Position numbers and translations under genes: made by a program. DNA of 64,000 nt from Escherichia phage RB3. Shown piece by piece: positions 8,013-28,355 of this stretch; the stretch's first letter is position 1, and every line of letters starts with the position of its first letter. The notes beneath the pieces are model-generated. The model made no database searches and was not told where the DNA came from. It was given only the letters and a program-made list of their open reading frames with translations. The stretch lies in the sequence record KM606994; one strand, 5' to 3'.

Positions 8013-9015
8013 AGCTCACCAACTCAATCCAAGCTGGACGAAGTACATCTTGTACCATTTTAACTAATTCCTTTTTAATCAAAGAAGGATTATCTGCTTG
8101 AGTTAGAGTAATACCTTCACGAGAAGTTTCTTCCAAAATATCTTGAACAGTTAGCCCCATCACCTTTCCAAAATCTTTAGGACCAATTTCGCCAATTTTA
8201 GAAATAACGTTATTTACTCGGTTCAGTGTAACGTAACAAGCTAAAATTCCCACCAATTTGTTATCAGCTTCTGATAGTTCAACTTTAGCTTTAATAGGCT
8301 TATCAGACTTTTTCTTTTCACTAAATTTGGAATTCTTGCATTTAATCGCTACACGATTTCCATTACGAAGCCAAGAAGGATAACAAGGTTTCAATACATA
8401 TCCTTCAGCGGTAAATACTTCGCCTTTTGCTTCGGCATTCCAAACGCATTTATTTGCATCAACTAATCCAGCATGGTCTACTGTAAAATTATAATCTTGG
8501 ACGACAGAATCTAAATCATTTGGCAATTTAATAAGCTCTTCAAATTTACCGCGACCTAAAAGTGGAGCCATTTTAAATTTAAATGTATTGCAGAATGATT
8601 CCATCATATAATCATCGACATAAGTCACATCACCACTTTCTGTAGTAACAATAATGTCAAATACATAAAAATCTTTATCGCCATAATCAACATTCTTCTG
8701 AATGCCAGGTCCAGCGAATTCGCCAAAGACTTGATAAGATACAACTGCTGAAGTTTCCATAATATCTTGTACTGCTTTAATGGAATCAGCGTAATTCTTT
8801 AAAATAATTTCATACCCAAAGAAATCTTCAGCAGGAAGAATAGGACCAGTACGTTTAGCGCAAGTTACTTTATCACGCTCAATAATCAATGAGAAATTTG
8901 TGCCGTGAATTTTTTCACGAGCTACCCATTCGCCGCCAGTCAATCCCAGGCTATAAAGTTTTTCAATAAATTTAGAGTTGTAATGATTTTCAAGACTGCT
9001 ATACTTTTTAAACAT
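8011..9015 (-). CDS. rnlB: RNA ligase 2
   Basis: 334 aa; nucleotidyltransferase KxxG motif (EKIHGTN); T4 position after gene 24. Confidence 0.9.
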
Positions 9016-21155: not shown

Positions 21156-22120
21156 TGTATTCTTTAGAGGAATTTAATAATCAAGCAATAAACGCAGATT
21201 TCCAACGTAATAATATGTTTAGCTGCGTTTTTGCAACAACTCCATCAACTAAAAGCTCTTCGTTGATAAGTTCAATTAGCAACTTTTCTTATAATAACTT
21301 GGGCCTAAATTCAGATTGGCTAGGATTAACTCAAGGTGATATTAATCAGGGAATTACCACGCTAATTACAGCTGGCACACAAAAACTGATAAGAAAATCA
21401 GGGGTTAGTAAATATCTTATTGGTGCCATGAGTCAACGTACAGTTCAAAGTTTATTAGGCTCATTCACAGTTGGTACATATTTAATTGACTTCTTTAACA
21501 TGGCATATAACTCATCTGGATTGATGATATATTCTGTAAAAATGCCAGAGAACAGATTATCCTATGAAACTGACTGGAACTATAATTCTCCTAATATTCG
21601 TATAACCGGAAGAGAATTAGACCCTTTGGTTATTTCATTTAGAATGGATTCAGAAGCTTGTAACTATCGTGCAATGCAAGACTGGGTTAACGCTGTTCAA
21701 GACCCAGTAACTGGATTACGTGCTTTGCCACAAGATGTCGAGGCAGATATTCAGGTTAATCTTCATGCTCGTAATGGATTACCTCATACTGCGGTGATGT
21801 TCACCGGATGCATTCCAATATCAGTGAGCGCTCCTGAGTTATCATATGATGGAGATAACCAAATAACTACATTTGACGTTACTTTTGCGTATAGAGTGAT
21901 GCAGGCTGGAGCAGTTGATAGGCAAGCTGCGCTTGAATGGCTTGAATCTGCTGCTATAAATGGTATTCAAAGCGTTCTCGGAAATAGTGGAGGTGTTACT
22001 GGACTATCTAATTCGCTTTCACGACTCAGTAGATTAGGAGGAACTGCGGGGAGCATTTCAAACATTAATACTATGACAGGAATTGTCAATTCGCAAAGTA
22101 AAATATTAGGAGCAATATAA
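21155..22120 (+). CDS. 54: Baseplate tail-tube initiator gp54
   Basis: 321 aa; followed by GGGGACC-GAAA-GGUCCCC terminator. Confidence 0.9.
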   Translation: MYSLEEFNNQAINADFQRNNMFSCVFATTPSTKSSSLISSISNFSYNNLGLNSDWLGLTQGDINQGITTLITAGTQKLIRKSGVSKYLIGAMSQRTVQSLLGSFTVGTYLIDFFNMAYNSSGLMIYSVKMPENRLSYETDWNYNSPNIRITGRELDPLVISFRMDSEACNYRAMQDWVNAVQDPVTGLRALPQDVEADIQVNLHARNGLPHTAVMFTGCIPISVSAPELSYDGDNQITTFDVTFAYRVMQAGAVDRQAALEWLESAAINGIQSVLGNSGGVTGLSNSLSRLSRLGGTAGSISNINTMTGIVNSQSKILGAI

Positions 22121-22124
22121 CAAT

Positions 22125-22153
22125 GGGGACCGAAAGGTCCCCATATTTTTATT
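22125..22153. terminator. Terminator between gene 54 and alt.-3 (convergent)
   Basis: GGGGACC-GAAA-GGTCCCC followed by ATATTTTTATTT. Confidence 0.75.
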
Positions 22154-22439
22154 TACGGAATGAAATGAAAGCAGAAACTGAAGCAACTAAACTGTCTTCA
22201 ATATAAACTTCAATTTTTACCGGAGCTTCTGACTCAAATTTACCTGTTACTACACTCTGAAAAATACTTTCAGACTGTTCTGGCTTTGAAAAATTTTCAG
22301 AAGGAAAAATTCCAAACTTTTTATCTGTTCCAAAAATTTTAATAAATTCATCGTAAACTGCTTCATTAAAAGCATTATCAGCAGGAATAACGCCTTCAAC
22401 TACAAGTTCTTGACCTAAAAAGCGCAAAGAAGATTTCAT
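22149..22439 (-). CDS. Hypothetical protein (alt.-3 position)
   Basis: 96-aa ORF; early-type promoter cassette upstream. Confidence 0.5.
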   Translation of the reverse strand: MKSSLRFLGQELVVEGVIPADNAFNEAVYDEFIKIFGTDKKFGIFPSENFSKPEQSESIFQSVVTGKFESEAPVKIEVYIEDSLVASVSAFISFRK

Positions 22440-22446
22440 TTTGTGT

Positions 22447-22500
22447 TCCTCATGTTATGTCAGTAAGTCTACTATAACACAACACGAGGGACTTGTAAAC
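22447..22500 (-). repeat. 54-bp early promoter/leader cassette, copy A
   Basis: Hand alignment: 52 of 54 nt identical to 37922-37975. Confidence 0.85.
22471..22500 (-). promoter_or_regulatory. Early-type promoter (GTTTAC -35, TATAGT -10) upstream of alt.-3
   Basis: GTTTAC-18 nt-TATAGT on minus strand; part of a 54-bp repeat. Confidence 0.6.
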
Positions 22501-24557
22501 TACATTTTGAACTTTTTAGACATTCCGTTGATGTTAACCAAAGAAGCTAATATTTGAGAAACTTCGTTTTCCTCTTCTTTTGATTCTTCTACAAGGAATT
22601 GATTAAATCCAGCCATTGGACGAACTTCACCAGTTTCCATTAAATGGTCTCCATCATATACTGATTCTTCTAATTGTTCAGAAGGAGGAACGATTGTACC
22701 TTCGATTAGATACTTGTTATAAGCAGTTTCTTTCATAAAGTACGTACTTACTTTATTAATCTTCAGTAAAATTCCGCGCGGTAGAATAACTTCAGCTTCT
22801 GATGGAAATCCTGATAAATGACCTGGAACGATAACTTTGATTCGCTCAGCTCCTTTAATTACCATACCCACGCTAGTTTCAGCATCTTCATTAGCATATG
22901 TAGAATGACTACCCATATGCATCAAATCTTCTGCATCAACGGAACCTTCTCCTTCACCAGAAAATACTGCGCCGGAATCATCTAGAGCCATATAGTTTTT
23001 ACCATGCTCACCGAAGATATTTGGTTTAAGCGATGTGGATACGAAGTTCTTGAAATAGAACATTTTGTTTTCAATGTTATGACGCAAAGTTTTAAAGGTA
23101 ACTTCTTGTCCACGATAAAGCGTAGTTCCTGGAGGAAGAACTGAACCTTTAGCGAATGCAGAATCAAGCGTCTCAATATGTTTAATAGCTCGTTCCATAT
23201 ATTCTTCACGGGTAGAATCTGGTTTACCCAAAAGGAACGAGTTCATTTCAACATATGAATCTGCACAATAATCTTCAATTACATCAGATTCAGCTTGAGT
23301 TAATCCTTTTGGAGTTACTTCGGTGCTTGCGTATTCATATGCCTGGGCAGCAGATTCATTAATCAATTTATAAATGCCATTCATGACAAATTGAATAATA
23401 GCTGTCTTTTCATCTGGCGTAGCTTTAGAACCTTTAACTAAATCATTAATAATTTTCTTAATAACATCAAAGCTATTAGAAATATTAATGTCAGCAAGAT
23501 CGCTTAAAATTTTATCAGTTTTATAATCAAAGAATTCTTTATTCTTTAAATATTCTTGAGAACCTTGATACGATATATCGCTCTGCAACTTGATAGATGG
23601 ATCACGTAAACGTGCATGGGCTAATGCAATATGATTTCGGAAACTTTCTAGTTCATAATCGTTAGATTTAAAACGAGAAGCACTTCTCATACCACCGATA
23701 GCTCCTTTGCCGAAGTTTGAACCAATCTGAATAACGCCAGAGTTCATTGGTCCTTCTGCTTTATATACCGGAACTTTAGATTCAAACTCTTGATATTTCT
23801 TGGCAGCGAAGCTATCACCCTGAAGTGAAGCATCGACAGTAGAATATTGAGCTTGTGCTGCTAATCGACGACTAATTTTAGTTTTTTGAATAACAGCTTG
23901 ATCCGTGCGCTTATCATTTTCTAAAGCAATAGAAGCAGCAACAGCGACAGCTTTAGGAACAGCATTACCTGTTTTAACATCTACATAAACATCACCGACC
24001 TTTGATTCAACTTTTGTGAATAACTCAGTTGAAATAGGAGGTACACCTGGAATGTCTTCTAAATTGGCATTTTTACGGTAAACCATAATATATGCATACT
24101 TTTTATCATAGTCCCAGATTTCCTTTAAAAGAACATATCGACCTGCTCCTTTAGTACGTACTAAACGGTCAGCAATAACTTGCATTTGACGAGCAGCGCC
24201 ATTTGTTTTACTTTTTAGTACGCGGAATAGGCATGCGTCAATTTTATACTGTTTCATTGTTTGAAGAGCAGTATCAAAAACAGCATTAATGACGCCAATT
24301 GGATTTCCACCCAAGTTTCTAAGCTTAACCAGCGATAATTTCTCGTTGACACCTATCATTACGATATGCATCATTTTATCGCCTGGCTTAACGTTTTTAT
24401 TCGTATCACCACCAGAGGTGTATGTACAAAATCTAAATCCAGGAAGCACGCTTTCTTCGCCGGCTTGAATAGCAAAAATTTGTGGTATTTTATGCTTAGG
24501 ATTTAAGTTAACAACCGGCGCCGAAGCGCCGTCAAATAATTCTGTAATAAGTTCCAT
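22500..24557 (-). CDS. Alt-like ADP-ribosyltransferase paralogue (downstream copy)
   Basis: 685 aa; N-terminus MELITELFD... close to the upstream copy; R-S-E ART motifs (LYRGQ, FVSTSL, EAEVILPRG); start 3 nt after the upstream copy's stop. Confidence 0.8.
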   Translation of the reverse strand: MELITELFDGASAPVVNLNPKHKIPQIFAIQAGEESVLPGFRFCTYTSGGDTNKNVKPGDKMMHIVMIGVNEKLSLVKLRNLGGNPIGVINAVFDTALQTMKQYKIDACLFRVLKSKTNGAARQMQVIADRLVRTKGAGRYVLLKEIWDYDKKYAYIMVYRKNANLEDIPGVPPISTELFTKVESKVGDVYVDVKTGNAVPKAVAVAASIALENDKRTDQAVIQKTKISRRLAAQAQYSTVDASLQGDSFAAKKYQEFESKVPVYKAEGPMNSGVIQIGSNFGKGAIGGMRSASRFKSNDYELESFRNHIALAHARLRDPSIKLQSDISYQGSQEYLKNKEFFDYKTDKILSDLADINISNSFDVIKKIINDLVKGSKATPDEKTAIIQFVMNGIYKLINESAAQAYEYASTEVTPKGLTQAESDVIEDYCADSYVEMNSFLLGKPDSTREEYMERAIKHIETLDSAFAKGSVLPPGTTLYRGQEVTFKTLRHNIENKMFYFKNFVSTSLKPNIFGEHGKNYMALDDSGAVFSGEGEGSVDAEDLMHMGSHSTYANEDAETSVGMVIKGAERIKVIVPGHLSGFPSEAEVILPRGILLKINKVSTYFMKETAYNKYLIEGTIVPPSEQLEESVYDGDHLMETGEVRPMAGFNQFLVEESKEEENEVSQILASLVNINGMSKKFKM

Positions 24558-24560
24558 GAT

Positions 24561-26654
24561 TTATCCTTGAACGAACTTGTAAGGCATGTTTGTAATATCT
24601 ATGCAAGACGCAATAATTCCAAGAGATGATTCTGCTTTCTGTTTAACGTTTGATGAAACAAATGATGCAAAGTCAACTCTGTCTTCTATTTCAATATCAC
24701 CTGTCATTGCAACTACTTCACCGGTTTCCATTAAATGGTCTCCGTCATAGATTACCGATTCGGTGAGTTCTTCGGTGGTCATAACTTCAGCTTGAATGAG
24801 TTTTGTATTATTAGATGTTGTTCCGTCATTATTAGAAGCATCAGTTATTTTATTAACTTTGACCATCAATCCACGCGGTAGAATAACTTCAGCTTCTGTT
24901 GCTATTCCGAGACTTCCTGGATATACAACATTAACTTTATGAGCTCCATCAATTGCCCATCCTATTTGAACTTTAACGTATTCAGGATTTTCTTTATACG
25001 CTCTTATTTCGTTTGGATTAATAGTTATTCCTTCTTCATTTTTATCAACTGTTAATTCATTGCGAGCTTCTGGTTCTAAAAGACCAATACCAGCATGTGT
25101 AATTCCAAAACGTCCAAAAATGATAGGAGTTAAAGAAGTAGATACAAAATTTCTGAAATAGAACACTTTATTTTTAACTAGTGCTTCGTATATAGGAGCA
25201 GTCATACTTTGAGCACGATAAACTGTAATGCCTTCTGGTATACGGTCACCATTTTCAAAAGCTGAATCTAAATTATTTATCGCAGATTCAATTTCTTTTT
25301 CACTCATTACATCATATCGTTCTGGATTGTAGCGGCCTAAAAGAAGATTATTGATGTCAGTATATCCTGATCCACAATACTCTCTAATACCGCGCTTTTG
25401 CGATGGAGTATATTTAGAACCATCACGGGCAATAGTAATATCAATCATTGGACCTGCACCAATTCCAGAAAAACTATAAATCATTCGTTTGAGGAATTTA
25501 GTTTTTGCTGAGTTCCAAGAATTTTTAGTTATTTCTTCCCAGACTTCATCTGGCTGCCCTTTACGAGTTTTATTATGTTTATCAAGCCAATTATCTTTAT
25601 ATTCTTCAAAGAATTGATTAACAGCTGCTGCGTATTTCTCTAAACATTTTATTGAAGTAGTTGGTTCATTTTTAATCGCATTAAGAATTACATCTTTAAT
25701 TTTTTCAGAAACTTCATTAACCTCACTTTTTGAAAAGAATTTATAGTCATAGTGAAGTTCATCTGCGGTTCCTTCGGCAATGATTTTTGCTGCCTTAGTT
25801 TTAGAAGCTAATGAATTAATTCCAAGCTTCATTTCTTCTGCTTCGGGAATTAAAGGAGCAGTAGCAGGTTTATTGAAATTAGCTGCGGTAGATTCATACT
25901 TCTGGAATAATTCACTTTCAAATCTAGAAGACTCTAACGATTGACTTTGTGCAATTGCTCTACGTGAAATTTTAACTTTAACGATTACAGCTTGGTCAGA
26001 ACGTTTATCATTTTCTTGCGCAATAGATGCTGCAATTGCCTCATTTTTAGTTACTTGGGCTCCAGTATCTTTATTGATATAAACATCACCGACCTTCGAT
26101 TCAACTTTAGTAAAGAGCTCAGTACTAATTTCCGGAACTCCCGGAATGTCTTCTAGTGATACATTTTTGCGATGTATAAGAATATATGCATACTTTTTAT
26201 CGTAATCCCAGAGTTCCTTAAGAAGGACGTATCTGCCACCTGAACGACTGCGGATGAGTCTATCAGCAATAAGTTGAATTTGTCGAGCTTGACCGGCGGT
26301 TTTAGACTTAAGAATACGAAGCATGCAGGCATCAATTTTATACTGACGCATTGTTTGCATTGCAACAGTAAAAACCGAATTGATATAATTAATTGGGCTT
26401 GGACCAAGACCTTTCAATTTAGCAATTGAACCTTTAGCGGTTAATGTAAAAGGAACAATATGCATCATTTTATCGCCCATTTTTAAATCGCGATTAGTAT
26501 CACCTCCAGATGTATAGGTACATAAACGAAAGCCTGGTTGTTCAATTGCATCATCAACATGAACTGAAAAAATTTGCGGTATTTTCTTCTTTGGATTTAA
26601 GTTTGTAATCGGAAGAGTAGTATCTTCGTCAAATAATTCTGTAATAAGTTCCAT
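24561..26654 (-). CDS. alt: Alt ADP-ribosyltransferase (head-packaged, injected)
   Basis: 697 aa from second Met; R-S-E motifs (VYRAQ, FVSTSL, EAEVILPRG); late promoter upstream; adjacent to alt.1 and gene 30. Confidence 0.85.
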   Translation of the reverse strand: MELITELFDEDTTLPITNLNPKKKIPQIFSVHVDDAIEQPGFRLCTYTSGGDTNRDLKMGDKMMHIVPFTLTAKGSIAKLKGLGPSPINYINSVFTVAMQTMRQYKIDACMLRILKSKTAGQARQIQLIADRLIRSRSGGRYVLLKELWDYDKKYAYILIHRKNVSLEDIPGVPEISTELFTKVESKVGDVYINKDTGAQVTKNEAIAASIAQENDKRSDQAVIVKVKISRRAIAQSQSLESSRFESELFQKYESTAANFNKPATAPLIPEAEEMKLGINSLASKTKAAKIIAEGTADELHYDYKFFSKSEVNEVSEKIKDVILNAIKNEPTTSIKCLEKYAAAVNQFFEEYKDNWLDKHNKTRKGQPDEVWEEITKNSWNSAKTKFLKRMIYSFSGIGAGPMIDITIARDGSKYTPSQKRGIREYCGSGYTDINNLLLGRYNPERYDVMSEKEIESAINNLDSAFENGDRIPEGITVYRAQSMTAPIYEALVKNKVFYFRNFVSTSLTPIIFGRFGITHAGIGLLEPEARNELTVDKNEEGITINPNEIRAYKENPEYVKVQIGWAIDGAHKVNVVYPGSLGIATEAEVILPRGLMVKVNKITDASNNDGTTSNNTKLIQAEVMTTEELTESVIYDGDHLMETGEVVAMTGDIEIEDRVDFASFVSSNVKQKAESSLGIIASCIDITNMPYKFVQG

Positions 26655-26677
26655 CATAGCCTCTCTAGTGTTTATTC

Positions 26678-26685
26678 TATTTATA
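26678..26685 (-). promoter_or_regulatory. Late promoter TATAAATA (alt)
   Basis: Exact TATAAATA on minus strand about 20 nt upstream of alt start. Confidence 0.65.
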
Positions 26686-26706
26686 AAATTAAAGGCCCGA
26701 AGGCCT
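26685..26706 (-). terminator. Terminator/hairpin after alt.1
   Basis: Minus strand AGGCC-UUCG-GGCCU directly after stop, then U-rich. Confidence 0.6.
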
Positions 26707-26895
26707 TTAGTAATCTAGTGGTAAGAGAGTACGATATATTTCAAACTTCGGTCCTTTTTCATAGGCATCAAATGTTTCTGTAAATTTGTTATAAGCGTAT
26801 GCATCTACAAATTCGAGAATGACTTGTGATACAGAAGTAGAAACATCTCCACCTTCTTTTTGAGCAATGACAATTGTTTCTAAGTAAGCTTTCAT
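26707..26895 (-). CDS. Hypothetical small protein (alt.1 position)
   Basis: 62-aa ORF between gene 30 and alt; followed by UUCG hairpin. Confidence 0.5.
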   Translation of the reverse strand: MKAYLETIVIAQKEGGDVSTSVSQVILEFVDAYAYNKFTETFDAYEKGPKFEIYRTLLPLDY

Positions 26896-28355
26896 AGACC
26901 AGTTACCTCATGAAAATCACCAAATACATCCTCGAATGTATTAGCTTTAGTTTTATCTTCACGTAAACGAATCGCAATCGGAAGAAATAATTTAACGTAA
27001 TCAGTGCGGCCATCAGATTTTAACCAACCGTTGCATTCGCACTCTAGAATTTTTCCAATATAATAATTTTGGTTTTCCATAATGCGAGTACGGTCAAGTT
27101 CATGCGATTTTACACCGGCTTTATCTTTTAAGCCTGAACCAGCATTTACTTTAATTTTTCCACACTCTGACTCAAGAATAAATCCACCTGCTTTAGTAGG
27201 GTCTTTACGGTGAGGATAAATTCCTACAATTTTTAAATCAACATCAATTACTTCTTTAAATTTATAGAGATTTTTTGAACGAGCATTTTCCCATAATCCA
27301 TCGATATTTTTGAGAATAATACCTTCAAGACCTTGGTCAATATACTTTTTATAAATTACCTTAGCTTCATCTAAGTTATTTACTACTTGGTTTTCAATTA
27401 AAATTACTTTATCATATCCTGATGTCATTTGTTCTAGTTTAGAAAAACGTACATCATATTTCAAACGAAATGCAGGAAGACCGTATATTTCTACCAACGG
27501 TACATAATCCCAGACCTGAAACTTCATGCACTGTGCTTCTTTTTCAGAAATGGTTCCCTTTAAAGATTTATTGGCGATGCCATTAGATGCAGTACGTGAT
27601 TCAGCTACTTCGGCGAATTCTTTAGCTTTACTAATTTCAGGATAAGCATCAAAAAGAAAATCTAGGCCTTCTGGCTCCTTTTTAACTTGCTCATGGTATA
27701 CCAATTCGCCATCAATTAACACACCTTCTGGATGAATCTGGCGGGCTTCAGCGGTCATTTTGATTAACTCTTCCTTAAGAAGATCTAATCCTAGATATTC
27801 ATTACCAGCTCGTGATAAAAGACGAACATCATCTAATTCATCACCTCTAACTTCAGCAAAACACCGAGCTCCATCAGCTTTTAACTGGGCAAAAGCTGGA
27901 AATTTGATATTCTTATTAATGCCTTTTTCATCATAAGAACTTGCAAGCATTTGAGGTTGTTCAGGAATTAAACCTGGCCAAACTTTGTTTGCAATAGATA
28001 CCGAAGCACCGCATTCAAGGTCTCGCATCATCACCCGACGCAAAACTTCAACATCATCTTTTTTACCGTCAGTAATATATCCAGTTAATTCCTCAATTGC
28101 CGCATTTCCAGTCAATTTCCGAGTAGCTAACGTGAATTCAATGAAGTCAAGCATATCGGTAAGAGTCAACATTCCAAAACTCTGGGTAGCAATACCAGGT
28201 TTAGGCCATTTCTTGATATAATACTGTAACCCACGAGAATAAGTCAGACGATATACCCGTTTAAGCAATTCATTATCTTTATTCTTTTCAAGAATTGCTT
28301 GCTTCTGCTTAGTTGAACCAATAGATGCTATTTCGTTCAGAATTTTAAGAATCAT
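26892..28355 (-). CDS. 30: ATP-dependent DNA ligase gp30
   Basis: 487 aa; ligase motif I KADGAR. Confidence 0.93.
   Translation of the reverse strand: MILKILNEIASIGSTKQKQAILEKNKDNELLKRVYRLTYSRGLQYYIKKWPKPGIATQSFGMLTLTDMLDFIEFTLATRKLTGNAAIEELTGYITDGKKDDVEVLRRVMMRDLECGASVSIANKVWPGLIPEQPQMLASSYDEKGINKNIKFPAFAQLKADGARCFAEVRGDELDDVRLLSRAGNEYLGLDLLKEELIKMTAEARQIHPEGVLIDGELVYHEQVKKEPEGLDFLFDAYPEISKAKEFAEVAESRTASNGIANKSLKGTISEKEAQCMKFQVWDYVPLVEIYGLPAFRLKYDVRFSKLEQMTSGYDKVILIENQVVNNLDEAKVIYKKYIDQGLEGIILKNIDGLWENARSKNLYKFKEVIDVDLKIVGIYPHRKDPTKAGGFILESECGKIKVNAGSGLKDKAGVKSHELDRTRIMENQNYYIGKILECECNGWLKSDGRTDYVKLFLPIAIRLREDKTKANTFEDVFGDFHEVTGL

Follow-up and report, generated by a model that had tools for sequence, protein, structure and literature searches.

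Bacteriophage T4 packages the NAD+--arginine ADP-ribosyltransferase Alt (gpAlt, NP_049811) in its head, with ~40 copies being kept in the mature particle and then ejected. T4 alt is a late gene according to transcriptomics and proteomics, and mass spectrometry revealed that the protein is trimmed at both ends, 6 N-terminal residues (ITE-6) and 63 C-terminal residues (LTE-619) being removed. Alt is non-essential in T4 and is inactive in vivo upon mutation of 'E577'; as a core protein, it has also been ascribed a function that goes beyond catalysis. The duplication of the gene was described earlier, in the T4 record's own note and by Nolan et al. (2006).

The T-even internal proteins Ip1-Ip3, a diversified set of anti-defence proteins, resemble Alt as late, non-essential proteins, highly variable between phages, which are targeted to the prohead via a short N-terminal propeptide cut by gp21 and are injected with the DNA. 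They differ in being small non-enzymatic inhibitors of GmrSD-type restriction, whereas Alt proteins are large enzymes with a C-terminus that is also processed. The ART fold and the Arg / STS / (Q/E)-x-E residues of the Alt proteins are found in C3bot/C3cer, Vis, VIP2, CDTa and iota/CPILE-a, i.e. the R-S-E clade (PF03496). Sequence identity to these C3 and binary toxins is 14-20%. Where the Alt proteins have a phage-specific N-domain and a helical region, the toxins have a secretion signal or a degenerate second ART domain; Alt, in contrast, is delivered by capsid packaging and ejection.

Results

Organisation and expression signals of the alt locus

We analysed a window of 64,000 nucleotides from Escherichia phage RB3 (KM606994), which is 100% identical to phages RB5/6/7/9/10. 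It contains alt, orthologous to T4 alt and at the equivalent locus, followed by a second Alt-family gene. The features of the locus are, in window coordinates:

26690..26709, minus strand: hairpin terminator-like element, AAAGGCC-TTCG-GGCCTTT plus T-run (scan and sequence reading)
26678..26685, minus strand: TATAAATA, a late promoter box of the T4 type located ~20 nt 5' of the alt start
24561..26654, minus strand: alt, 697 aa plus stop, RB5-type allele
25935..26654, minus strand: alt N-terminal domain, residues 1-240, the first six being the propeptide MELITE
25425..25934, minus strand: alt hypervariable central region, residues ~241-410
24759..25424, minus strand: alt ART domain, residues 411-632, ending at the predicted C-terminal cleavage site
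24564..24758, minus strand: alt C-terminal propeptide, 65 aa, acidic, with YDGDHLMETGE
22500..24557, minus strand: second Alt-family gene ('alt.-2' in the RB5/RB32 records), 685 aa plus stop
23838..24557, minus strand: second gene N-terminal domain, residues 1-240
24210..24218, minus strand: 9-bp direct repeat CTAAAAAGT, upstream copy
23313..23837, minus strand: second gene helical central region, residues 241-415
22665..23312, minus strand: second gene ART domain to LEE-631, residues 416-631
22503..22664, minus strand: C-terminal propeptide of the second gene, 54 aa with YDGDHLMETGE, predicted to be disordered
22511..22519, minus strand: 9-bp direct repeat CTAAAAAGT, downstream copy
22471..22499, minus strand: T4 early-type promoter-like site, GTTTACA-17-TATAGT
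22149..22439, minus strand: alt.-3, 96 aa, DUF5498, final gene ahead of the terminator
22123..22144, no strand assigned: bidirectional hairpin terminator between gene 54 (plus) and alt.-3 (minus)

The pair lies in the order DNA ligase, alt.1, alt, second gene, alt.-3, gene 54, with the late promoter ahead of it; TATAAATA is the sole exact copy of the box on the minus strand within 22400-26800. The hairpin terminator-like element is located 3' of alt.1 and directly upstream of this promoter. Strand scan and sequence reading revealed neither an exact late box nor a terminator between alt and the second gene, which are separated by a spacer of 3 nt (TAA-atc-ATG), and the ribosome-binding site of the second gene, AAGGA, overlaps the final codons of alt. 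A tandem pair in one late operon, as put forward in the original prediction, agrees with the single T4-type late promoter and the uninterrupted arrangement. The terminator at 22123..22144 is likely the 3' end of the late alt transcript; the early-type promoter-like site lies right past the stop codon of the second gene and serves alt.-3. Of the lengths given originally, 685 aa stands and 698 aa probably needs correction: the listed alt ORF (24561..26657, MMELITELFD...) is counted from the first of two adjacent ATGs, and we favour the second, resulting in 697 aa, because of the Shine-Dalgarno spacing (GAGAGG-CTATG-ATG) and the RB5 GenBank annotation.

Two proteins of the same build with divergent central regions

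Both proteins show a four-part build, composed of a 6-residue N-terminal propeptide up to ITE-6, a Tevenvirinae Alt-specific N-domain of ~235 residues, a variable helical region with a C3/VIP2-type ART domain, and an acidic C-terminal propeptide of 54-65 residues following L-x-E. Pairwise alignment, the check proposed initially, revealed 41% identity over the full length (BLASTP, 463 bits, E 8e-159), well outside what chance would give, and 64% nucleotide identity of the genes in the best-conserved part. The second protein starts with MELITELFD..., nearly identical to the start of Alt, and the N-terminal 240 aa are 66% identical, compared to 12% over the ~175 aa of the central region, 31% in the ART domain and 36% in the C-terminal tail, so that the conserved N-terminal region and the unrelated central regions had both been recognised correctly.

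T4 Alt and the window Alt have the late promoter, the R-S-ExE core and the ITE-6 and LTE cleavage sites in common and are 99% identical in the N-domain and 92% in the C-tail, yet represent different alleles with 31% identity in the central region and 61% in the ART domain. The second protein shares the whole architecture and PHROG 802 with T4 Alt but is only 37% identical overall and 7% in the central region.

Family membership, catalytic core and fold

The assignment of both proteins as Alt-type ADP-ribosyltransferases with an intact R-S-E triad is backed by domain and family profiles, conserved residues and fold matches. Pfam PF03496 (ADPrib_exo_Tox) scores 128.9 bits for Alt (E 1.9e-37) and 71.8 bits for the second protein (E 6e-20), both above the gathering cut-off of 23.4 bits, and PHROG 802 matches residues 1-696 of Alt (E 5e-273) and 1-685 of the second protein (E 5e-256). 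PF26846 (Tevenvirinae_ADPRT) is present in the precomputed Pfam annotation of a 99%-identical cluster representative (P0001) and of all full-length homologues; our separate Pfam scan gave no PF26846 match for the window proteins. A profile search with the N-domain matched only 73 representative clusters, and the ART domain was found in 58 of the 63 scanned.

The catalytic residues are R480 (VYRAQ), S505-T-S507 (FVSTSL) and E587-A-E589 (EAEVILPRG) in Alt, and R482 (YRGQ), S507-T-S509 and E587-A-E589 in the second protein. In the numbering of the latter, R482, S507, S509, E587 and E589 are invariant across 19 family members and at least 90% conserved across 63 representatives (mean identity 17%), and in the family profile Arg and ExE fall on the corresponding catalytic residues, Arg and Q/E-x-E, of C3cer (4xsg) and CPILE-a (5gtt). 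This R-S-ExE core suggests both enzymes being of the arginine-specific type. The published E577A is off by one from the ExE motif in RefSeq numbering (E576), a shift for which an upstream ATG in the T4 Alt numbering is the putative source. Three residues before ExE, within the ARTT loop that recognises the substrate, the second protein has F, RB5 Alt has I and T4 Alt has S.

The structural model of the second protein, built on shallow alignments (19 and 10 sequences), shows an ART domain matching Vis, C3bot, CDTa and VIP2 (Foldseek E 5e-7 to 1e-4, probability 1.00), a helical central region and a confident alpha/beta N-domain (pLDDT 84), for which the structure search returned no close solved relative and no ART matches. 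We therefore rejected a binary-toxin enzymatic component with two tandem ART folds (VIP2, iota Ia, CDTa), the N-domain model being without ART matches and the pre-ART region being helical. A MuF-fused phage effector or polymorphic toxin was rejected as well: neither Phage_Mu_F (MuF) nor another Pfam domain was found in residues 1-378 of Alt or 1-415 of the second protein (E <= 0.1), and the likeness of delivery module plus effector is functional only.

Predicted processing sites

The predicted gp21 sites, ITE-6 and LTE-632 in Alt and ITE-6 and LEE-631 in the second protein, align with those of T4 Alt, and conservation of E6 and E631 is 90% or higher across 63 family representatives. The C-terminal propeptide of Alt aligns with the 63 residues cut from T4 Alt by gp21, and in the model of the second protein a low-confidence tail begins at residue 631. 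The N-terminal ~250 residues had been proposed as a processing region; this conflicts with the mass spectrometry of T4 Alt, in which only 6 residues are removed at this end. The DGDHLMETGEV motif was placed correctly at both C-termini (DGDHLMETGE is found at residue 637 of Alt and at 635 of its neighbour), but it belongs to the propeptide that gp21 is predicted to remove and would have no place in the mature enzyme. In the literature searched, we found no study on the second protein being present in virions, cleaved, injected or enzymatically active.

Remains of the second gene in T4

The T4 record confirms one intact alt of 682 aa. It contradicts the idea of the second copy being an expansion relative to T4: by alignment, the T4 ORFs alt.-1 (61 aa) and alt.-2 (67 aa) are the scar of the second gene, i.e. 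a truncated pseudogene of which the window carries the intact 685-aa version. In T4, the 5' 350 nt of the gene survive almost unchanged and meet its final ~20 nt at the one CTAAAAAGT copy that is left; an internal segment of 1,699 nt, bounded in the window by the two CTAAAAAGT repeats, is missing, and a further 1-nt deletion shifts the frame. The 1,699-nt deletion breaks the gene mid-way through the folded N-domain, and the region downstream is again common to T4 and the window. The T4 remnant families PHROG 23015 and 15247 match the second gene with 1e-40 and 1e-37, compared to 1e-21 and 1e-19 for alt. Insertion of the 1.7-kb segment with a 9-bp target duplication is implausible, because the segment completes a collinear, in-frame Alt homologue.

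Distribution, selection and age of the gene pair

The same gene pair, with the same order and 3-nt spacer, is found in T6, RB32 (alt.-2), RB27, Sf22, Sf24 and others at 94-100% nucleotide identity, without any meaningful difference from the window pair. These records annotate pairs of 'Alt-like RNA polymerase ADP-ribosyltransferase', that of Sf24 carrying the note 'distinct from Sf24gp48 and T4 Alt'. Both genes occur in at least 355 records, the second effector or deleted segment in ~400 and the T4 scar in 91; the two-gene layout is the majority state. The RB5-type alt allele is present in ~330 records. The pair was to count as conserved rather than novel if T4 carried both full-length genes; T4 does not, but T6, RB32 and hundreds of annotated relatives do, and two Alt-like ADP-ribosyltransferases, listed as such in many RefSeq records, are thus already known. 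All 7 phages sampled retain an intact second gene, and its dN/dS, 0.044 overall with 0.035 for the ART domain, indicates that it is functional and under strong purifying selection.

The effector of the second gene is nearer to the gene-54-proximal copy of fDHCT2 and to Dhakavirus JS10 than to the neighbouring alt, its central region being 43% identical to that copy in phage fDHCT2, and the second gene has an orthologue at the equivalent position in another genus. Our comparisons show that the duplication must be old, predating the Tequatrovirus/Dhakavirus split. At least one phage carries three copies, and PST and ECML-134 possess single hybrid genes that have lost the Alt effector, shown by the same comparisons to be products of repeated unequal crossing-over inside the homologous N-domains. 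RB5 Alt and alt_3 of fDHCT2 are 95% identical in the ART domain and 45% in the N-domain. New here are the repeated collapse of the pair to single hybrids and the finding that N-domains track the genome and effector modules track the locus position.

Discussion

We consider it highly likely that the locus represents the ancestral two-gene T-even alt locus, composed of alt and the intact form of the gene left in T4 as alt.-1/alt.-2. T4 and ~90 relatives have lost the second gene via the 1,699-nt deletion between the 9-bp repeats and a frameshift, and in other phages unequal crossing-over in the N-domains has fused both genes to one hybrid. By analogy to T4 Alt, both proteins would be made late, built into the prohead core and trimmed at both ends by the gp21 prohead protease, to ~70.2 kDa for Alt and ~69.1 kDa for the second protein, and would then be carried in the head, injected with the DNA and mono-ADP-ribosylate host proteins on arginine. 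It is very probable that both enzymes enter the cell by injection and there modify host proteins, the window Alt being expected to act on RNA polymerase alpha and the other known Alt targets. Different substrates, suggested already in the original prediction, are plausible given the divergent central and ART regions, and most likely the second enzyme modifies a different set of host proteins, because its substrate-facing regions are 12-31% identical to those of Alt yet conserved across genera. Phages of the T4 type, without the second gene, and of the PST/ECML-134 type, without the Alt effector, are viable; therefore neither effector is essential, and the two could be partly redundant.

A recent, lineage-specific duplication in descendants of a T4-like ancestor with one copy would account for the one intact alt of T4 and for adjacent paralogues with near-identical starts. 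However, T4 still contains the two ends of the second gene, with a frameshift and an internal deletion in what remains, and by our reading this scar already refutes the scenario. The protein and nucleotide identities of only 41% and 64% argue that the duplication is not recent, and the positional orthologue in another genus and the majority status of the two-gene layout likewise oppose it; we give it almost no credence. That the second gene is a redundant back-up, which shares RNA polymerase alpha and the other targets with Alt and raises dosage or robustness, is unlikely. The enzymes share architecture, the arginine-type ExE motif and the promoter, natural phages thrive with either effector alone (91 T4-type scars; the hybrids), and Alt is dispensable in T4. 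Nevertheless, each type is conserved across genera under strong purifying selection despite the divergence of central region and ART domain, for which separate functions are a better fit than dosage, and the ARTT-loop residue differs.

The second protein might also not be injected, but act late in the producing cell or serve as a structural core component with incidental enzymatic activity. The role of Alt beyond catalysis and the absence of proteomic evidence for the second protein in virions would agree with this. Against it, the conserved N-terminal propeptide and both gp21 sites would be pointless in anything but a prohead-core protein, T4 Alt remains part of the mature head at ~40 copies and leaves it by ejection, and invariant catalytic residues with a low ART-domain dN/dS do not suit incidental activity, making this explanation very unlikely.

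Starting from the ancestral two-gene locus, a further model is possible, which we propose only tentatively: injected effectors may be organised at the alt locus as cassettes, a genome-specific N-terminal 'delivery' domain being combined with exchangeable ART effectors. The N-domain would be alike among the copies within a genome and fitted to that phage's own prohead, the effector modules (central region and ART) would move between phages, and N-domain homology would drive unequal crossing-over resulting in arrays of one, two or three genes and in single-gene hybrids. The second enzyme would ADP-ribosylate a factor of host defence or stress that is not among the Alt targets, much as Alt acts on MazF and as Ip1-3 act on variants of GmrSD. 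Being absent from T4, the second enzyme is therefore absent from the classical literature as well. If this model is true, presence or absence of the second enzyme would shape host range among Tequatrovirus phages.

The tandem alt genes and their distribution

The original prediction of a tandem pair of Alt-type ADP-ribosyltransferases (ARTs) is borne out. Two adjacent minus-strand ORFs encode proteins being 41% identical over their full length (BLASTP, E 8e-159), and all the motifs quoted in the prediction are there. The ORF listing gives:

24561..26657, minus strand: alt ORF (698 aa from the first ATG)
22500..24557, minus strand: second-gene ORF (685 aa), here gene 2

The spacer between alt and gene 2 reads TAA-atc-ATG. 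The alt ORF starts with ATGATG, preceded by a Shine-Dalgarno sequence GAGAGG at a spacing of 2 nt (first ATG) or 5 nt (second ATG); given this spacing and the annotation of the start at the second ATG in the RB5 record, the alt protein most likely has 697 aa and begins with MELITELFD like the gene 2 product. The flanks are the same as in T4, i.e. genes 29, 48 and 54 on one side and alt.1, 30 (ligase) and 30.1 on the other. The product of alt.1 (62 aa, window 26707-26895) matches Pfam PF24647 'Phage_blade' (E 1.9e-29) and is mislabelled 'siderophore-interacting protein' in several GenBank records.

The pair as such is already known from RefSeq annotation in many T-even phages. Enterobacteria phages RB5, RB6, RB7, RB9 and RB10 are 100% identical to window 22000-27000, and T6, RB32, RB27, Sf22 and several hundred other Tequatrovirus genomes are 97% identical. 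Their records name the pair 'alt' and 'alt.-2' or list two 'Alt-like RNA polymerase ADP-ribosyltransferase' genes; the Sf24 record describes the second as 'distinct from Sf24gp48 and T4 Alt'. The annotated pairs of T6, RB32 and Sf24 are the same genes as the pair in the window, whereas T4 has an orthologue of the first gene, Alt, and only the wreck of gene 2, alt.-1/alt.-2. About three quarters of the sequenced Tequatrovirus genomes encode the second enzyme.

Records in the phage collection
543 records: match to the 5-kb locus query
355 records: both genes (a single location covering at least 80% of the 5-kb query)
400 records: 1.68-kb segment absent from T4 (at least 94% identity, at least 80% coverage)
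91 records: T4-type scar

Both genes are intact in all seven phages compared and evolve under purifying selection, with dN/dS values of 0.053 for alt, 0.044 for gene 2 and 0.035 for the ART domain of gene 2.

Fold and catalytic core

PHROG 802 covers both proteins over their full length, both score above threshold for PF03496, and the N-terminus of homologues carries PF26846 'Tevenvirinae_ADPRT'; no NCBIfam model matches either protein. Four parts can be distinguished in an AlphaFold model of the gene 2 protein (pLDDT 77):

residues 11-240: alpha/beta N-domain
residues 250-470: confident helical region
residues 470-630: ART fold
from residue 631: disordered tail

The modelled ART part resembles Vis, C3, CDTa, VIP2 and Certhrax. 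Searching the PDB with the gene 2 protein as a single sequence gave no match at E <= 1, and the family profile was needed to obtain matches, in which the Arg and the E-x-E line up with their catalytic counterparts (Arg and Q/E-x-E) in solved ARTs. None of the residues R482, S507/S509 and E587/E589 of the second protein varies among 19 relatives, and across 63 representatives with a mean identity of 17% their conservation is at least 90%. A T4 Alt 'E577A' mutant is inactive in vivo; by RefSeq numbering the T4 motif is E574-M-E576, the published number probably counting from an upstream ATG. The Alt pair is similar to other R-S-E toxins in its chemistry and to the T-even internal proteins in its delivery, and membership tests place it outside both the MuF-fused effectors and the binary-toxin A components.

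Processing, expression and proposed function

Mass spectrometry showed the prohead protease gp21 to cut T4 Alt at ITE-6 and LTE-619, so that 63 residues are lost from the C-terminus (Ali et al. 2017). The corresponding predicted sites are ITE-6 and LTE-632 in the alt protein and ITE-6 and LEE-631 in the second protein, resulting in predicted mature sizes of 70.2 kDa and 69.1 kDa. Every relative compared has (L/I/M)-x-E at these sites, and across the family E6 and E631 belong to a small number of near-invariant columns. The DGDHLMETGEV motif, predicted to be retained alongside the catalytic triad, is indeed present in both C-termini, but the conserved cleavage sites place it outside the mature enzyme, as part of a predicted acidic C-terminal propeptide.

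Just past a hairpin terminator, 20 nt upstream of alt, there is an exact copy of the late-promoter box TATAAATA; transcriptomics and proteomics show T4 alt to be a late gene. The scan found neither an exact late box nor a terminator between alt and gene 2. Inside alt, where the exact box is absent, variants of TATAAATA with one mismatch are the sole candidates for an internal late promoter that may serve gene 2. Downstream, a T4 early-type promoter (GTTTACA-17-TATAGT, window 22471-22499) begins at the gene 2 stop codon and serves alt.-3 (DUF5498), which is followed by a strong bidirectional hairpin terminator (window 22123-22144) located before gene 54. Across the whole window the exact TATAAATA occurs 18 times. 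Shuffles predict 9.0 +/- 3.0 copies, with 0 of 100 attaining the observed count, and the excess fits a late-gene-rich T-even segment.

The most likely model is that both genes encode late-made, prohead-packaged, doubly processed and injected arginine mono-ADP-ribosyltransferases, according to which the second protein would be packaged, injected and active like Alt. Its substrates may differ from those of Alt, as the original prediction suggested, a reading of sequence divergence by itself. Our literature search turned up no publication addressing what the second gene does.

Loss of the second gene in T4 and age of the duplication

The T4 reference has the order alt (682 aa), alt.-1 (61 aa), alt.-2 (67 aa), alt.-3, and the annotators of the T4 genome record interpret alt.-1/alt.-2 as the first part of alt, duplicated long ago. 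PHROG families derived from T4 alt.-1 and alt.-2 match gene 2 (E 1e-40 and 1e-37) better than alt (E 1e-21 and 1e-19). The locus alignment shows T4 to have kept the first ~350 nt of gene 2, near-identical except for one A absent from an A-run, the loss of which causes the alt.-1 stop, as well as the last ~20 nt and the downstream sequence. The two pieces meet at a single copy of CTAAAAAGT, a 9-mer occurring twice in the window (24218-24210 and 22519-22511, 1,699 nt apart), which is the signature of a deletion. In the model, the junction at ~residue 117 of the gene 2 protein falls within the folded N-domain. The 91 carriers of the T4-type scar include T4 stocks, RB55, RB59 and many wild isolates. 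T4 is thus the deleted, degenerate state, in which the second gene was lost. Shorter forms of the second protein are represented by P0007 (624 aa, 36 members), P0008 (528 aa) and P0010 (415 aa, 14 contigs), which align with 61-91% of its length at 98-99% identity. Some of these sit on full-length phage contigs. The shortening may reflect either additional, independent inactivations or differences in start calling.

Compared with its neighbour alt, the gene 2 effector, i.e. central region and ART domain, is nearer to Dhakavirus JS10 and to the gene-54-proximal alt copy of Escherichia phage fDHCT2: identities to the fDHCT2 copy are 43% (central), 52% (ART) and 63% (tail) compared to 12%, 31% and 36% to alt. 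The duplication is thus older than the separation of these genera. Nolan et al. 2006 had already reported alt paralogues for RB49, 44RR and T4. The original prediction was right that T4 has one intact 682-aa alt, but it missed the gene 2 remnants at the same locus, and its suggestion that the second copy is an expansion is contradicted by the deletion scar in T4 and by the orthology of the gene 2 effector across genera.

Recurrent collapse of the pair into hybrid genes

Four proteins (P0003-P0006) have an alt-type start and a single switch to the second-gene type, at four different points, and their contigs carry one gene between alt.1 and alt.-3. The same layout is found in the isolates Yersinia phage PST, ECML-134 and SCS4, the breakpoints of the PST and ECML-134 hybrids differing again from those of P0003-P0006. 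Hybrids with an alt-type N-terminus and the remainder of gene 2 lie at five loci:

L010, 4001-6061: hybrid gene
L011, 4001-6061: hybrid gene
L012, 4001-6055: hybrid gene
L013, 1742-3802: hybrid gene of Yersinia phage PST
L014, 1742-3802: hybrid gene of ECML-134

There are at least five different breakpoints (~residues 45, 100, 150, 180 and 220), the crossovers lying within 8-11 nt of identity inside a region 64% identical between the genes. We rejected the possibility of the hybrids being assembly artefacts, given the shortness of this identity compared to the assembler k of 99 for L010 and the recurrence of the layout, with differing breakpoints, in the independently sequenced PST, ECML-134 and SCS4. 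Unequal crossing-over has thus collapsed the pair on at least five occasions, the effector of the second gene being kept every time.

Modular evolution of the alt locus

At the same locus (L009:495-6755), phage fDHCT2 carries a tandem array of three alt genes (707, 681 and 694 aa) with 3-nt spacers like that of the pair. Gene 2 has its orthologue in the gene-54-proximal copy, and the effector of the middle copy matches neither window gene (central region 18% to alt and 8% to gene 2; ART domain 37% and 35%). N-domains cluster by genome, with identities of 66% within RB5, 65-87% within fDHCT2 and 40-45% between these phages, whereas effector modules cluster by locus position across phages, RB5 Alt and fDHCT2 alt_3 being 95% identical in the ART domain and 45% in the N-domain. 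This pattern points to effector modules being exchanged horizontally and to N-domains subject to gene conversion or co-adaptation. Alt itself is mosaic, since the T4 and RB5 versions share 99% identity in the N-domain and 92% in the C-tail but only 31% in the central region (window 25425-25934) and 61% in the ART domain; T4 locus positions 8276-8697 are left uncovered by blastn matches. About 330 records carry the RB5-type allele.

The N-domain model (me874e36a7fec; window 23823-24557, minus strand) has fold-level BFVD matches (Foldseek E 1e-7 to 1e-4, TM ~0.45-0.55) in unrelated myoviruses, among them phiEa2809, Vibrio VP-1 and Agrobacterium Atu_ph07. The matched proteins are large and uncharacterised, a few being annotated with Zeta-toxin, cytidine-deaminase or ParB domains. 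The N-domain may thus be a widespread virion-delivery module also for non-ART cargo. Sequence searches give this no support: with the exhaustive N-domain profile, 58 of 63 representatives are ART proteins, the rest being fragments or lacking a Pfam match, and we therefore treat the fold matches as a lead only.

Implications

The useful correction is one of direction: it is the model phage T4 that is degenerate. As a consequence, the classical Alt literature never examined the second enzyme, although it is under strong purifying selection. The biology of the second gene is a conventional question, and the enzyme is a well-defined object for follow-up on targets, host range and counter-defence. 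Two observations are modestly new and bear on the evolution of injected-effector loci: the pair has collapsed into hybrids repeatedly, and N-domains stay with their genome while effector modules are mobile.
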